A stretch of 56,375 bases of DNA, taken from assembly GCA_005879975.1 (NCBI GenBank), contig VBIL01000037.1, positions 1-56,375 on the forward strand, read 5' to 3'. This DNA is from Chloroflexota bacterium (GTDB lineage Bacteria > Chloroflexota > Limnocylindria > P2-11E). This document shows positions 32,740-40,309 of this stretch, in pieces. Within the stretch, counting starts at the first letter, position 1; each line of letters opens with the position of its first letter. Position numbers and translations under genes: made by a program. The notes under the pieces were generated by a model that was not told the DNA's origin, made no database searches, and worked only from the letters and a program-made list of their open reading frames with translations.

Positions 32740-33673
32740 GTTCGGCATACACATTGGCCATCTCGGCGGCCCGCTCGATGAGATGCGACGATTGTGGCGA
32801 TTCGCGGACGAGCGCGGGTTCGACTGGTTCTCGCTATCGGATCATTTTCAGGAGACGCCACCACAAGGTGGGGACATCGACTGCTTCGAGTCGATCGCCA
32901 CGCTGTCTGCCGCGGCCCTGGAGACGACGAAGGTCCGGGTCGGTTGCCTCGTCTTCTGCGTCGGCTACCGGCACCCCGGCGTTCTCGCGAAGGCGATGAG
33001 CACCGTCGATCACCTATCCAAAGGACGTGCTGACTGCGGCCTGGGTGCGGGGTGGGACGAGGTCGAGTTCGCGTCGTACGGCATCCCGTTTCCATCCATC
33101 GGCGAGCGCGAGGATCAGTTGGAGGAGTACGCCGAGGTCCTCCGTCTCCTGTTTGATCGTCGTCGCGCCGACTTCAGCGGCACGCACTACAAATTCGTAG
33201 ACGCCCCGAACAACCCCAAGCCTCTCCAAAAGCGGCTGCCTATCTGGATCGGAGGCGCCGGAGAGAAACGGACTCTTCGAACCGCCGCTCGCTTCGCCGA
33301 CGGCTGGAACGCGCCGTATCTCGCGCCGGCGGAGTGGAAGCGCAAGAGCGAGGTACTGGACGCGTGGTGCGTCAAGGTGGGCCGCGATCCCGAGTCGATC
33401 GCGCGGACCATCAACGTCGGGTTCTACATGGGCGCCGACGACGCGGGAGCAAAGCGTCACGAGGAGCGGTACCAACGGCACTGGTCGAAGGACACGCACG
33501 GAGTTACGGGATTCCTGCGCGGCAGGTCGCGCGCGGCCGCGGACGTGGTGGCGTCATACGCAGATGCGGGCGCCCACCGCGTGAACATCGCTCTACGCGA
33601 GGGACCGTACGACTGGGATGCTCTCGAAGCGTTCGTCGACGACGTGATGCCGCAGTTCAAGGAGGCTTCCTGA
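32735..33673 (+). CDS. LLM-class (F420/FMN-dependent) oxidoreductase; probable ATT start
   Basis: (I)RFGIHIG, SLSDHF, VGCLVFCVGYRHP, GLGAGW, IWIGGAGEKRTL, ADGWN. Confidence 0.9.
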   Translation: MRFGIHIGHLGGPLDEMRRLWRFADERGFDWFSLSDHFQETPPQGGDIDCFESIATLSAAALETTKVRVGCLVFCVGYRHPGVLAKAMSTVDHLSKGRADCGLGAGWDEVEFASYGIPFPSIGEREDQLEEYAEVLRLLFDRRRADFSGTHYKFVDAPNNPKPLQKRLPIWIGGAGEKRTLRTAARFADGWNAPYLAPAEWKRKSEVLDAWCVKVGRDPESIARTINVGFYMGADDAGAKRHEERYQRHWSKDTHGVTGFLRGRSRAAADVVASYADAGAHRVNIALREGPYDWDALEAFVDDVMPQFKEAS

Positions 33674-33792
33674 TGCATCGGATCATCGTCGCGCTCTTTC
33701 TGCTCGCAGCTCTGATGACGCTCGGCGGCACGGCCTGCGGTTACGGTGGTGGCGGTGGACAAGGCTCTCCCGCGCCGAGCGTCGGGTACTAG
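33673..33792 (+). CDS. Micro-lipoprotein (39 aa), ends PAPSVGY
   Basis: TGATG coupling to the LLM gene, AAGGAGG RBS, hydrophobic core plus GTAC lipobox. Confidence 0.65.
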   Translation: MHRIIVALFLLAALMTLGGTACGYGGGGGQGSPAPSVGY

Positions 33793-34183
33793 CGAGACCC
33801 CGCGCCTTCGTATCGCACCGTTCACGCACGAGGGCTCGCGGGGAAACTGGATCGTCCGCTGGCGCGTCCGCAACGACGGCACGCGCAGGCTTCGGCTCAT
33901 CTCCGCGACGCAGCCTCATGCGCAGTTTCGAACGCCAGAGAAGGCGCTCGAACAGGAGGTCGCGGCCGGTGCGGAAGGTGATATCGCTTTGCCGGTGCGG
34001 TTCGCCGAGACGCCTGGCAGCCTCGTCGAGAATCCTTTCCTGATCCTCCGCGTCGCGGACGGCGATGTGGTGTGGCGTGTCCTCGCACGCGTGAGCGTGA
34101 CCGCAGGCCCGGGCGGCGAGCCGATCGCCGGCAACACCATATCGATCACGACCCACCGCGTCGGAGCCGTCTCGCGGGACTAG
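33788..34183 (+). CDS. Hypothetical beta-rich (Ig-like) protein; start uncertain
   Basis: WIVRWRVRNDG, PHAQFR, VENPFLILRV, WRVLARVSV. Alternative GTG at 33746 lies inside the upstream lipoprotein gene. Confidence 0.65.
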   Translation, partial: TSETPRLRIAPFTHEGSRGNWIVRWRVRNDGTRRLRLISATQPHAQFRTPEKALEQEVAAGAEGDIALPVRFAETPGSLVENPFLILRVADGDVVWRVLARVSVTAGPGGEPIAGNTISITTHRVGAVSRD

Positions 34184-34192
34184 GCTTTCATC

Positions 34193-34408
34193 GTGGAAGA
34201 GAACGACCGCTACGTCATGCAGCGGATGAAGGGCTGACGCGGCAACTGAAGCCAAGGCTTCGAAGAGACCACGGGTATGGTCTCCAACGTGCTCGAGGTG
34301 GACCAGGACGACCTGGTCAAGCAGCTCAAGACCTTCAAGAAGAAATACGCCGAGGATGCGGAGTACAAGAAGCTGCGCGCGACCCTGCCGAAGGACTGGC
34401 CCTTCTAG
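34193..34408 (+). CDS. Candidate selenoprotein, 71 aa, two in-frame TGA (U-R-G-N-U)
   Basis: GTG 34193 lies 6 nt after TAGGCT; translation MEENDRYVMQRMKG*RGN*SQGFEETTGMVSNVLEVDQDDLVKQLKTFKKKYAEDAEYKKLRATLPKDWPF; TGA at 34235 and 34247; G/C-ending codons on both sides of the TGAs. Confidence 0.7.
34258..34298 (+). promoter_or_regulatory. SECIS-like hairpin
   Basis: Upper stem GAGACCA/TGGTCTC (34265-71/34278-84), loop CGGGTA; lower stem CTTCGA/TCGAGG. The loop is 22 and 34 nt downstream of the two TGAs. Confidence 0.6.
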
Positions 34409-35184
34409 ACCTGCGCGAGCCGCTCCTTGGGCAACCGCACTTCGGGGTGCCGTAGCGCGAGCCGTCCGGTCTTCCCGCTCCAGTAGACGTCGCGCTGGCC
34501 GGTCATCGCCTGCACGTGGCCGTCCCACTCGAAGTTGAACGCCTCGACGCCAAGATGCACCGCGCGCCGGCATTTCTCGCGAACCTCGTCCGTCGTCGCG
34601 TACTCACGAATCGCGGCGATCTGACGATCTCCGTGACCGGTGTCCTGCTCCGCATGAAGCTCGTACGTCGCCGCGGCGCGCCGCGAGAAGCCGTAATGGC
34701 CGGTGAGCTCCTTGTACACACGCGCGGCCGCGCCATCGGGACCACCGTGCATCGCCTCGACGAATGCCAGGAGCGAGATTCCTTCGAGCGCTGAGCGATT
34801 CTGACAACCCGAGCGGATCATCTCGATCGCGGCGAGAGTGCCGGGGGCGGGATCGGCCTGGTCGGCCTGGTCGCGAGCGATGCCCGCTTCGTCAAGCATC
34901 TGCAGCATGATGTCGACGTGGGTCTTCTCGCCCCCTAGCTCCTCCATGAAGTTCTCCATCACGATGTCCATGAGCGCGTAGTTCCGCTCGCTCGCGACAT
35001 TCGTGACGATGTACCCGAAGAAGATCGGATTGGTACGCACGCGCAGGTAGTGCTGGATCTCGCCAAGAGCGATCTGCTCGCGGGTCCACCGGTGTTCGAC
35101 AATGCCCTTGAACCACGGGTGGTCCGGCATGAAGAGCTCGCGGGCGACGCTCCAGAGCTCGTCGATGAATTTCTCGTTCGCCAC
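34405..35184 (-). CDS. Heme-oxygenase-like diiron enzyme (PqqC/CADD/TenA-like)
   Basis: HPWF, ENFMEELG...THVD, AFVE, YELHAEQDTGH, FNFEWD resemble HDO metal ligands. Confidence 0.85.
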   Translation of the reverse strand: MANEKFIDELWSVARELFMPDHPWFKGIVEHRWTREQIALGEIQHYLRVRTNPIFFGYIVTNVASERNYALMDIVMENFMEELGGEKTHVDIMLQMLDEAGIARDQADQADPAPGTLAAIEMIRSGCQNRSALEGISLLAFVEAMHGGPDGAAARVYKELTGHYGFSRRAAATYELHAEQDTGHGDRQIAAIREYATTDEVREKCRRAVHLGVEAFNFEWDGHVQAMTGQRDVYWSGKTGRLALRHPEVRLPKERLAQV

Positions 35185-35221
35185 CAGGAGCCTCACTCTA
35201 CGCGCGATCTCCGCGCGAAGG

Positions 35222-38001: not shown

Positions 38002-40005
38002 TCAGTTCGCGAACTTGAACACGTTGGGCTGTAGTGTGACGCCGGTGTTCAGCTTCACGATCTCCGCGAGCGTGTGCCGGAAGTCCACGCCGAAGACCTG
38101 ATCGATAAGTCGCAGGCCTGGGTCGTTCTGATAGAAGAAGCGGTCGCCGTCGCGGATGGCCGCGAACTGCTTCTTCCACATCGCGAGCTGGAGCTCGCCG
38201 AACACCGTCCCGTTGACGTGGCGCTCGGAGACCATTCCGACGAACGCGTCGAGGCGGTCGACGTTGCCATAGATCGCCTTGAGTCGCGCGGCGACGGTCG
38301 AGCGCCGTACGCCGGTGACGACCTCTTCATCGGCCGCGTTGGTGCCGGGAGTGACGATGTTCCCGCTCGCGTCGCGGAGCTCGACGAAGTCAAGGATGTT
38401 CGGATCGTTGATCGGATCCCGCGGGTTGATCGCGGGATCGCTGGGGAATCGCTGGCTGCCCTCGCCGGTCACCGCGATGAACGATGTCTTTGGCGCGAGG
38501 CCATACGCGCGGCGCAGGTCGTTGTATAGAGGGATGCCATGATCGCGGCCACGCGCGATGTCTATCGCGCCAAGGTCGCTCACGCCGCTGAAGCAGTCGG
38601 GATTCACGATCGGCACGCCGCACACCGTCGGGTCGGGAACACCCGGCTTTGGGACTTGGAAGAGCACGCTGCGGAGCGCGTTGTCGATCTGCTCGTCGTT
38701 CTCGTATTGGCGCTGGCTGAGGCTCTGGAAGACCGGACCGAGTCCGAGATTCTGGAGAAGATCGGGGTTGCCGAACGCCGCCGCGAGTGGGATCTCGAGA
38801 TTGACTTGGTCACCGTCGGGCTCCACAACGACCTGCTGTGCCGCGAAAGCGGCGAGCTGCGCGTCGGTGTAAGTGCCGGCGGGAACGCTCGTGTCGAACT
38901 CGCCGTGGATCATGCTGTGCGCCCGGTAGCCGACGACCGCGAACTCGTTCGACAGGCCAGGGTTCACGGACGGGTCGTAGCCGTCGTACGGCTTCAGCCG
39001 AACCCCGAGCGCGGGCAGGAACTGGGTGTAGGTGATGTATTGGATCTCCGCACCGACCACTCGGCGCGCGATCTGGAATTTTTGCTCCGCCGAGAGGTAC
39101 TTGGGCAATTTGGCGACGATGCGGTTGTGTTCGCGCGCGAAGAGGGTGTGCAACGAGGTCAGGGCGATGTTCTCGTTGGCGCGCACATCGCCGGCGACCA
39201 CAGCGCGGTTCGGTGTCCCGACGAGCGGACCCATGAGATCCATGGCGGGCGCTTTGGAGGGATCGCCGCGGGCGGTCACCCGCGGCAGGAAGCCGTCCTT
39301 GGTGAGCAGGAGCCGGGCACTCTTGCTCGACCCCTCGTTATCGCCGGGGCCGTCGTTCGACATTTGGTCGGCGCGAGCGTCGTTGTTCGACCTGTCGTGG
39401 TCGATAGCCTCGTCGTTCGACCCGTTGTTGTCGAGCGGCCCTGCTCGCAGCCAGTCCAGGCGGGTCGCGTCGACGCCGTAGACGTTGGACGCGTCGATGA
39501 AGCTGCTGAGCGTGTTGATCTGCTGGCGGGCCGAGCTTACGCCCGTGCCGGGAGCCGCTGGGGTACGCGAGAAGGCGATCGCGCCGAAGTCGTTCCTGAA
39601 CTCCTCCAGCGGGTCCGCCGAGTCGAAACGGATGGCCGCGTTCTCCGCGGGCCGTTCATCCCTCAGACCGAAATCGTGATCGAGGAACTGCCCCCAGACC
39701 CAGCCCCACTGGGTGACGCCGTCCTTCGAGAAGATGTTCTGTCCGACATCGTTGAAGATCCGGTTGCTCACATAGCGGATTGATGGCCCGCCCACCATGG
39801 CCGAGATCCCGTCGGCGTAATTGGTGGGTGCAACTCGAAGGTAAAGTGTGTTCGCGCGACCCCACTCGGAATGACGAAGATTATTGCCACTCCCGTCGAG
39901 CGTTCGGAACGCGAATGAGGCCGCGTCGCCAGGGGTCGTGGTGACCGCGAGCACGACTATGGTGAGCGCGAGAGCGAAGACGCCCGAAACTCTCAGATCG
40001 CGCAT
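38002..40005 (-). CDS. Secreted heme peroxidase (peroxidase-cyclooxygenase superfamily)
   Basis: Signal peptide; RTLDGSGNNL, WGQFLDHD, FIDASNVYG, AGDVRANEN, FAREHNR, YRAHSMI, RGRDHGIPLYN, RDGDRFFY. Confidence 0.93.
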   Translation of the reverse strand: MRDLRVSGVFALALTIVVLAVTTTPGDAASFAFRTLDGSGNNLRHSEWGRANTLYLRVAPTNYADGISAMVGGPSIRYVSNRIFNDVGQNIFSKDGVTQWGWVWGQFLDHDFGLRDERPAENAAIRFDSADPLEEFRNDFGAIAFSRTPAAPGTGVSSARQQINTLSSFIDASNVYGVDATRLDWLRAGPLDNNGSNDEAIDHDRSNNDARADQMSNDGPGDNEGSSKSARLLLTKDGFLPRVTARGDPSKAPAMDLMGPLVGTPNRAVVAGDVRANENIALTSLHTLFAREHNRIVAKLPKYLSAEQKFQIARRVVGAEIQYITYTQFLPALGVRLKPYDGYDPSVNPGLSNEFAVVGYRAHSMIHGEFDTSVPAGTYTDAQLAAFAAQQVVVEPDGDQVNLEIPLAAAFGNPDLLQNLGLGPVFQSLSQRQYENDEQIDNALRSVLFQVPKPGVPDPTVCGVPIVNPDCFSGVSDLGAIDIARGRDHGIPLYNDLRRAYGLAPKTSFIAVTGEGSQRFPSDPAINPRDPINDPNILDFVELRDASGNIVTPGTNAADEEVVTGVRRSTVAARLKAIYGNVDRLDAFVGMVSERHVNGTVFGELQLAMWKKQFAAIRDGDRFFYQNDPGLRLIDQVFGVDFRHTLAEIVKLNTGVTLQPNVFKFAN
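39321..39440 (-). repeat. Degenerate 30-nt tandem repeat (4 copies) inside the peroxidase gene
   Basis: Forward-strand decamers ending TCGA at 39321, 39351, 39381, 39411; encodes Asp/Asn-rich 10-aa units. Confidence 0.7.
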
Positions 40006-40235
40006 ACGAACCTCCGTCCCTTCTCCCCTCGATCAAGGGTTCGGACGGATCACACGCTCACCCGACGAAGCGCCCCGACGCTGGCGCCGCTTCCCTCCCT
40101 TTGGTGGGTGAGCGGCTAACCCAGCCGAACTTCTATGCAATCAACGCGCGGTCATGAAAGCCACGTTATCGACGAGAGATAAGAGTTCGGGGTCAGAGGA
40201 TTAAGAAACACGGGGTCAGGTGACTGAAGTACCGG

Positions 40236-40309
40236 CGGGCCGTGCGCGGCTCGAACGCGCCCACTCCTACTTAGAAGGTAGGTGCTCTATCCAACTGAGC
40301 TAACGGCCC
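40236..40309 (-). tRNA. tRNA-Arg (anticodon TCT)
   Basis: Acceptor GGGCCGT/ACGGCCC, D arm GCTC/GAGC, anticodon arm CCTAC-CTTCTAA-GTAGG, T arm GCGCG-TTCGAGC-CGCGC; full CCA not encoded. Confidence 0.95.

Follow-up and report, generated by a model that had tools for sequence, protein, structure and literature searches.

Selenoproteins whose selenocysteine insertion sequence (SECIS) lies in the coding region combine an in-frame UGA, a nearby hairpin inside the open reading frame (ORF), homologues with cysteine (Cys) in place of selenocysteine (Sec), and the SelA/B/C/D machinery. Here we describe a gene with the same set of features in a 56,375-nt stretch of DNA from a Chloroflexota bacterium (assembly GCA_005879975.1, contig VBIL01000037.1, positions 1 to 56,375 of the forward strand; hereafter the window). 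The frame at 34193-34408 is very probably a real gene for a 71-residue selenoprotein, the microprotein, in which UGA codons 15 and 19 would be read as Sec (G-U-x-x-N-U). The SelD protein of the same genome is one of the known selenoproteins with which it can be compared. Unlike these, the microprotein gene has two UGAs 12 nt apart and two adjacent conserved hairpins, its product is very small (71 aa), and its hairpin sequence is identical across phyla.

Two close Sec residues have been described in bacteria for a UxU form of a rhodanese-related sulfurtransferase, where they occupy former Cys positions (Zhang and Gladyshev, 2007, PMC1976440). In that form the second Sec is an occasional variant and the fold and family are different, whereas both Sec positions of the microprotein are fixed in nearly all members of its clade (79/80) and have x3 spacing. 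Proteins of the Rdx/SelW type (CxxU, thioredoxin-like) are likewise small and carry a Sec-containing redox-type pair, but the motif of the microprotein is Ux3U, and neither the read-through protein nor 10 Cys homologues matched PF10262 or a thioredoxin-type Pfam family. Full-length homologues are found among archaeal CxxxC proteins of about 71 aa, from metagenome-assembled genomes (MAGs) of Thermoplasmata, Sulfolobaceae, Heimdall-/Hodarchaeales and Marsarchaeota. These share the invariant F, T, M, R, P and P and also adjoin an enzyme of the heme-oxygenase-like fold; they differ by having Cys for Sec and a zf-C2H2_9 plus TENA/THI-4 partner, and the 145-aa partner discussed below is found at none of 80 Cys-form loci.

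Neither the Sec form nor the Cys forms match a family in Pfam or NCBIfam; a profile built from the Cys-form alignment A7 found nothing in the PDB below E = 0.8, and the ESM Atlas score for a Cys form was only 0.76. The accessible text of the literature found, including PMC13188914, PMC13326102, PMC12013277, PMC1976440 and bioRxiv 10.1101/2022.07.06.499078, contains no description of the family; the supplementary family lists of BSepDB/deep-Sep, which lie outside that text, could contain it. Since no match or description was found, and since UxU is a precedent for close Sec residues, we class the microprotein as a new selenoprotein family decoded in a known way. Its unusual features are the two-UGA layout and a likely role as one of the major Sec users in these soil bacteria.

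Conservation of the reading frame and its two TGA codons

The coding sequence on the + strand starts with GTG at 34193 and comprises 72 codons, VEENDRYVMQRMKG-TGA(34235-34237)-RGN-TGA(34247-34249)-SQGFEETTGMVSN...DWPF-TAG(34406-34408). The read-through product has 71 residues (...RMKG-U-RGN-U-SQGFEETTGMVSN...DWPF), TAA and TAG are absent inside the frame, and the two TGAs are assigned as Sec15 and Sec19 from TGA/Cys conservation in relatives. The -10-like hexamer TAGGCT (34181-34186, + strand) stands 6 nt 5' of the GTG, and its TAG doubles as the stop codon of the upstream gene. The first-pass annotation, made from the sequence of the window, had described this spacing, the two in-frame TGAs in a frame uninterrupted by TAA or TAG, and codons ending almost always in G or C on both sides of the TGAs; on direct reading all of its statements on the sequence hold.

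The first-pass annotation had also regarded the geometry as leaderless and common to many genes, and the genome bears this out. A start codon of an ORF of at least 100 codons follows 4-9 nt after 38 of the 132 TAGGCT sites, with a peak at 6-7 nt, compared with 4-9% for control hexamers (TAGGCA, TCGGAT, GATCGT, TTCGGA, CAGGCT, TGGACT, AGGCTT and TACGCT). The hexamer TAGACT is likewise enriched 6-7 nt before the starts of long ORFs (30/68 against the same 4-9%), and the enrichment of both hexamers suggests that leaderless transcripts behind a TAnnnT -10 box are widespread. Transcription of the microprotein gene probably starts at or beside the GTG, which would give a leaderless mRNA behind the TAGGCT box. 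Same-genus loci have TAGGCT, TAGTCT, TAACCT, TAATCT or TACGCT before the start, distant loci have GGAGG in place of such a box, and the start codon of the relatives is GTG, ATG or TTG at codon -14, or ATG at codon -16, relative to the first TGA. A sigma-70 consensus scan of 33600-34700 found no promoter, and among the RNA runs searched none was found that contained 33600-34800.

When the read-through protein was searched in six frames against 61 related genomes, a full-length match was obtained in 31 of them, belonging to two taxonomic families (E <= 4.5e-16, identity down to 44%). All 31 matches carry two TGAs, and in the 30 loci read from these genomes both TGAs are at identical codons (30/30). 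Scanning prokaryotes with one genome for each species gave 194 relatives, and 80 of them were kept. L078 has TGC followed by TGA, the other 79 carry both TGAs, and the second TGA is thus present in 80/80. The 80 loci are labelled as Candidatus (Ca.) Limnocylindria, other Chloroflexota, Ca. Binatia, 'delta proteobacterium' and others, and for some the contig measures 0.5 to 1.6 Mb. When the phylum was sampled evenly with 401 genomes, 15 carriers were found; 14 keep the TGA pair, and L208 has TGT in both places. The conserved TGA pair that the first-pass annotation had proposed to look for is thus present in 30/30, 79/80 and 14/15 loci. It had also named TGG or TGC in raw reads as a counter-indication; contigs from four soil metagenome runs of four studies cover both TGA sites and show no variant at either. 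Sequencing error as the origin of the TGAs is ruled out by the agreement of independent assemblies.

The locus sets used in the following overlap. The 110 loci come from two sources with duplicates between them and include 84 distinct full-length sequences, while hairpin counts are given on 82 distinct sequences. Counts over the 61 genomes (microprotein, SelA, enzyme and 145-aa protein) include three unpublished genomes, G010, G021 and G026, and the loci L017 (G010) and L020 (G021) are counted in the 30-locus, 110-locus, coding-signature and hairpin analyses. L046 and L049, which are counted among the 80 and the 110 loci, encode the same proteins as L020 and L017, respectively, over the compared parts. 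Alignments A1 and A4 and their derivatives leave out the unpublished genomes, and no claim depends on those genomes alone. Limnocylindria-type loci also occur in MAGs titled Bathyarchaeia, Udaeobacter, Acidiferrales and Nocardioidaceae (L057, L062, L073 and L078), with a protein identity of 70-76% for three of them and 57% for L078; mis-binning is likely. In the metagenome runs X1-X4, contigs break at the ultra-conserved stretch 34213-34296, where summed depth climbs from about 6 to as much as 364, as would be expected if many co-occurring strains or species share this identical stretch.

The codons in front of the first TGA evolve as protein-coding sequence. For codons -12 to -1 the ratio of non-synonymous to synonymous polymorphism (pN/pS) is 0.49, similar to the 0.52 of the C-terminal part, while the values for this N-terminal stretch in the two alternative frames are 1.07 and 1.42. 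This answers the question, raised with the first-pass annotation, of whether conservation at protein level exists 5' of the internal Met. Over the 84 distinct sequences, differences per site in codons -12 to -1 are 0.35, 0.20 and 0.47 at codon positions 1, 2 and 3, and synonymous codons are used in variety upstream of the first TGA (Asp as GAC 43 times and GAT 37 times; Arg with five codons).

The residue that alternates with TGA is Cys. L078, with TGC at site 1, and L088, with TGA, are strain-level relatives with 18 differences in 1865 nt, and the pair represents a natural Sec-to-Cys polymorphism at site 1 only. L208 (G415:C165:9048-9254, - strand), which encodes the same protein as P0090, carries TGT at the two positions. 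Among 1.84 billion representative proteins, 124 were matched in a profile search. Most of these are 43-residue truncations, and the 22 full-length matches among them all have CxxxC (22/22). The TGA/Cys alternation sought in homologues is thereby found at site 1, at both sites together, and throughout the full-length matches. One of the 22 full-length Cys forms is from Chloroflexota; ten full-length Cys clusters were looked up, where the other names are archaeal MAGs and all entries are labelled 'hypothetical protein'. In a profile-to-profile comparison with hhalign, the alignment between the Sec set and the Cys set covers 70/70 columns (probability 99.9%, E = 3.9e-33), with the Sec positions falling on the Cys positions; the Cys alignment includes one member of the Sec clade, P0090. 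The internal Met is invariant in the Cys forms too.

In a tree made by a quick method on 70 columns, 18 Cys forms are split from an 82-row clade with a Shimodaira-Hasegawa-like approximate likelihood ratio (SH-aLRT) support of 100. The 82-row clade contains all 80 Sec/Sec rows together with the nested Cys/Cys form and the nested Cys/Sec form, which fits a two-Sec state that arose once, with reversions afterwards. With U for UGA, the predicted pattern of the family over about 71 residues is (C/U)-x3-(C/U)-x3-F-x2-T-x2-M ... L-R-x2-[LF]-P-x2-[WF]-P.

Hairpins in the coding sequence and the selenocysteine machinery

The SECIS candidate of the gene is a hairpin we call H2 (34265-34284, + strand; GAGACCA / CGGGUA / UGGUCUC), which has an invariant stem and frozen synonymous sites. 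Its loop begins 34 nt past the first TGA and 22 nt past the second, has G at position 2, and the exact motif occurs once in the genome. This hairpin had been noted in the first-pass annotation, and its 7-bp stem, loop spacings and G position stand. The 'lower stem' that was described with it does not, as RNAalifold found no conserved extension of H2 and instead a separate upstream hairpin, H1 (34247-34262, + strand). H1 consists of a U.G pair plus GAAGC, a 4-nt loop and GCUUC, and includes the second UGA.

The DNA from GGC-TGA to the end of H2 is almost invariant among relatives. The H2 stem is identical in 82/82 distinct sequences, and its synonymous sites are frozen (Glu GAG 84/84, Thr ACC 84/84, Thr ACG 82/82 and Val GTC 84/84). 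The codon just 5' of the stem varies (GAA 55, GAG 29), as do the Gly codon in the loop (GGT 68, GGC 13, GGA 2, GGG 1) and the Ser codon just 3' of the stem, for which four codons are used. Folded alone, H2 reaches -9.2 kcal/mol (z = -2.9), and 1 of 200 shuffles folds as well. Bacterial SECIS (bSECIS) elements are described, in PMC13188914, by a loop of 3-9 nt, a stem of 4-16 bp, a G in the first two loop positions, a spacing of 16-37 nt and a minimum free energy <= -7.5 kcal/mol. When these constraints were applied by hand, H2 fitted them for both UGAs: its loop has 6 nt, its stem 7 bp, the spacings are 34 and 22 nt, and it folds at -9.2 kcal/mol.

H1 is paired in 99% of cells across the 82 distinct sequences. 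Its innermost pair changes from C-G to G-C in two of the 82 (L037 and L039), an A-U pair becomes G-U in 27, and L217 has a further compensatory change from C-G to G-C. Codon 7 ends in C whatever the residue (column C36 of alignment A3 is invariant, 82/82) and is GGC in 73/73 sequences with Gly there. H1 alone folds at -7.0 kcal/mol, just short of the bSECIS threshold. In L208, the sole Cys/Cys member, H1 is destroyed and the H2 stem has GTT for GTC, compared with Val15 GTC in 84/84; this would look like relaxed constraint after the loss of Sec, in a single case. L208 also keeps nearly the whole H2 sequence, which looks like a SECIS relic after reversion to Cys.

The coding sequence contains another perfect 7-bp hairpin at 34300-34319 (+ strand; GACCAGG / ACGA / CCTGGTC), and a sub-threshold Rfam match to Guanidine-II covers 34300-34340 (17.8 bits, threshold 32). 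The region is variable in relatives, and both are probably due to chance.

The genome (2.66 Mb, 83% complete) contains tRNA-Sec (75 bits), SelA, the SelB wing domain and SelD, and all four of selA, selB, selC and selD, whose presence had been set as a check, are therefore in place. The SelD gene (G000:C164:4934-5860, - strand, locus L121) itself has one in-frame TGA, in the motif TCAG-U-GAK. A GC-rich bulged hairpin follows this UGA, with a loop starting 16 nt downstream. SelA was matched in 31/31 microprotein genomes, and the microprotein in 0/18 SelA-negative genomes. An altered genetic code was considered and is ruled out, as TGA is the commonest stop of the genome and closes 689 of 1343 long open frames; in 8/29 relatives TGA is also the microprotein gene's own stop codon. 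No molybdopterin enzyme was found in this 83% complete genome, and the 4 AhpC-TSA, 1 Rdx (the genome's own Rdx homologue) and 5 thioredoxin matches are all without TGA. Besides SelD, the microprotein is the only Sec user found among the families searched, which is a narrower set than a full selenoproteome scan, and this could explain why the Sec trait is kept.

In the mechanism we propose, SelB with Sec-tRNA(Sec) would bind a hairpin within the coding sequence and thereby recode the UGAs. We lean towards H2 as the SelB-binding SECIS for both UGAs, with H1 as a possible auxiliary element. The distance to the start of H2 is 15 nt from the second UGA and 27 nt from the first. The ribosome reaches about 11-13 nt past the A site, so H2 could stay folded outside the ribosome at both decoding events.

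Several observations weigh against this interpretation. In its 71-nt context the single-sequence fold is not significant (z = -1.3), and the minimum-energy structure does not contain H2; as such a fold proves little, the case rests on the comparison with relatives. The H2 pairing is argued from frozen synonymous sites and thermodynamics only, and covariation cannot be scored because the stem never varies. H1 breaks the bSECIS loop rule in most sequences, which lack a G at either of the two initial positions (e.g., CAAG and CUCG). Rfam gave no SECIS match, neither at the gathering threshold over the whole window nor at E up to 10 on 34150-34450. The co-occurrence with SelA is confounded by phylogeny, with families f1 and f2 all SelA-positive. 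Moreover, we are not aware of any tested example from bacteria of a single SECIS acting for two UGAs 12 nt apart.

A tandem arrangement, in which H1 serves the first UGA and H2 only the second, is a serious possibility, although we consider it the less probable one. The H1 loop begins 15-16 nt after the first UGA, like the hairpin of SelD in this genome (16 nt), and the compensatory changes in L037, L039 and L217, the frozen synonymous sites in the H1 3' arm, and the fact that H1 is the element wiped out in the Cys/Cys form all speak for a role of this hairpin. However, its loop is unconserved as well as mostly devoid of the early G, it has only 5-6 pairs and -7.0 kcal/mol, and it must melt when the ribosome reaches the second UGA, which lies inside H1.

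Neighbouring genes and possible function

The gene directly upstream of the microprotein (33746-34183, + strand) encodes a 145-aa protein that belongs to no known family and appears to be a module partner. It shares its frame with the microprotein ORF, from which it is separated by the TAG plus 9 nt. A fusion of the two was considered and is ruled out by the intervening TAG and promoter-like box and by the variable spacing in relatives. The 145-aa gene is upstream in 103/110 loci and in 13/14 loci of the phylum sample, and its genome profile (32/61) consists of the 31 microprotein genomes and G029; in several genomes of the same genus it lies about 2 kb from the microprotein. The protein contains no Cys and has no sequence match in Pfam, NCBIfam or PDB; ESM Atlas gave a weak lead to an immunoglobulin (Ig)-like fold (score 0.81).

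On the other side, a convergent gene on the - strand (34405-35196) encodes a heme-oxygenase-like, CADD-like dimetal enzyme with Pfam and PDB matches (Haem_oxygenas_2, 5.6e-17; CADD / 4-aminobenzoate synthase, 1e-9), and its stop codon overlaps that of the microprotein within CTAG (34405-34408). The listed ORF of 394 aa is over-extended, as relatives have about 259 aa, and the start is likely GTG 35184 or GTG 35196. The enzyme belongs to the same family of heme-oxygenase-like helical folds as CADD (PDB 1RCW, 8VA9) and keeps the E/H/E/H/D/H positions of the CADD motifs with identical residues aligned, which we take to be the metal ligands. It differs from CADD in having Phe (in 'HPWF') at the position of Tyr27 and Val at that of Lys152. 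Tyr27 is the substrate residue of the self-sacrificing CADD according to PMC9522330, and by that criterion the enzyme is not a CADD-type 4-aminobenzoate (pABA) synthase. Against the NCBIfam CADD model TIGR04305 it scored 44 bits, with a cut-off of 200.

The enzyme is present in 98/110 loci and in 30/61 genomes, all within the 31 microprotein genomes, and in the one without it the locus lies at the end of a contig. Across the 61 genomes the three genes occur or are absent as a set, and none of them is found in several SelA-positive genera of the same family. A luciferase-like oxidoreductase farther upstream is not conserved (46/110 loci). Outside this group, the window carries at 38002-40005 (- strand) a 667-aa ORF that matches the Pfam family An_peroxidase (animal haem peroxidase, E = 1.8e-96) and is adjoined by a tRNA-Arg(TCT) gene (40234-40309), the only element that Rfam reported for the whole window at the gathering threshold.

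The Cys forms have a related arrangement. In 58/76 anchored loci a zf-C2H2_9 plus TENA/PQQC protein is encoded about 22 nt downstream on the same strand. This enzyme also matches Haem_oxygenas_2, and at L123-L202 it matches PDB 4LQX, a 'TENA/THI-4 domain-containing protein', with E = 1.6e-110; a poorly aimed literature search turned up no paper on 4LQX / SSO2700. When the enzyme of the window was searched by tblastn in 80 Cys-form loci, 2 weak matches were obtained, and the link is visible only through ORF clustering and Pfam. ORF clustering in loci of 65-67% GC was confounded by shadow ORFs and was replaced by targeted tblastn for the 110 loci. As the Sec and Cys clades both pair the small protein with an enzyme of this fold, the pairing is older than the use of Sec.

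To judge by its motif and gene linkage, the Sec pair may form a redox-active diselenide/selenol or a metal-ligating site, and would then donate electrons to the neighbouring dimetal oxygenase, handle its metal or carry its substrate. In the bacterial Sec clade the microprotein may act together with the 145-aa upstream protein. A point against this is that the oxygenase link is drawn from neighbourhood and from co-occurrence among related genomes, which are non-independent observations. The microprotein could instead be a genuine selenoprotein that is independent of the oxygenase, such as a small metal or metalloid binder or a general selenol/thiol redox protein. As a motif, (C/U)x3(C/U) is generic for redox or metal sites, gene neighbourhood is often misleading by itself, and the 145-aa gene is displaced by about 2 kb in the same-genus genomes mentioned above. 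Nevertheless, we consider an independent role rather unlikely, as the linkage to a heme-oxygenase-like enzyme recurs in the Sec clade (98/110) and the Cys clade (58/76) with enzymes that are only remotely alike, and as gene presence and absence coincide across the 61 genomes.

We tentatively suggest that the microprotein might be the selenium-dependent subunit dedicated to a new oxygenase system of three parts, the Ig-like 145-aa protein, the Ux3U microprotein itself and the dimetal enzyme. Its Sec pair, or a metal ligated by it, would supply the dimetal site with electrons, metal or a tethered substrate. The microprotein might also be the main reason why abundant aerobic soil Chloroflexota (Ca. 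Limnocylindria) and Binatia keep Sec decoding even where no formate dehydrogenase is found, and the gene might be the first natural bacterial case of UGAs 12 nt apart that are decoded via a shared SECIS or a tandem pair.

Alternatives to selenocysteine and significance of the family

The UGAs could also be true stops, which would leave a 14-codon upstream ORF and a structured leader (H1 and H2) that regulates a 43-residue protein translated from ATG 34277. Gene callers do place the start there, as the first-pass annotation had predicted: 85/88 database relatives are called as 43 aa. The near-invariant DNA from the first TGA to H2, with the ATG in the hairpin, is also readable as translational control. 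We find this very improbable, because the Cys/Cys homologues are continuous over 71 aa (22/22) and align end to end with the read-through product, and because the coding signature before the first TGA is present in this frame alone. In addition, the internal Met is invariant in Cys forms, where a role as start codon is impossible, and the start codon with a promoter or Shine-Dalgarno site sits at the upstream position.

Read-through without Sec, in which a near-cognate tRNA inserts Trp or Cys and the hairpins act as stimulators, has a basis in the structure-stimulated stop read-through established in other systems, but is equally hard to reconcile with the full Sec machinery, with a gene found only in SelA-positive genomes (31/31 vs. 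0/18), with Cys, the signature of Sec, as the invariable alternate residue, with the fit of H2 to the bSECIS constraints, and with an arrangement kept across phyla even though two successive inefficient events would yield very little protein. The earlier suggestion of a 71-aa UxxxU selenoprotein is thus supported by TGA conservation, coding signature, Cys alternation, constraint at RNA level and machinery, and Sec insertion at both UGAs is the explanation we strongly favour.

As databases list mostly a 43-residue 'hypothetical protein', the functional half of the microprotein with both Sec positions is invisible in them. With UGAs four codons apart and two adjacent hairpins, the gene offers a compact natural test of how far SelB and SECIS tolerate close Sec codons. 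Heme-oxygenase-like dimetal enzymes form a fast-growing superfamily, and a small (C/U)x3(C/U) partner conserved in both archaea and bacteria suggests that this superfamily has an accessory component which has gone unrecognised. For the soil bacteria that carry it, the microprotein may be a main reason why the Sec machinery is retained.

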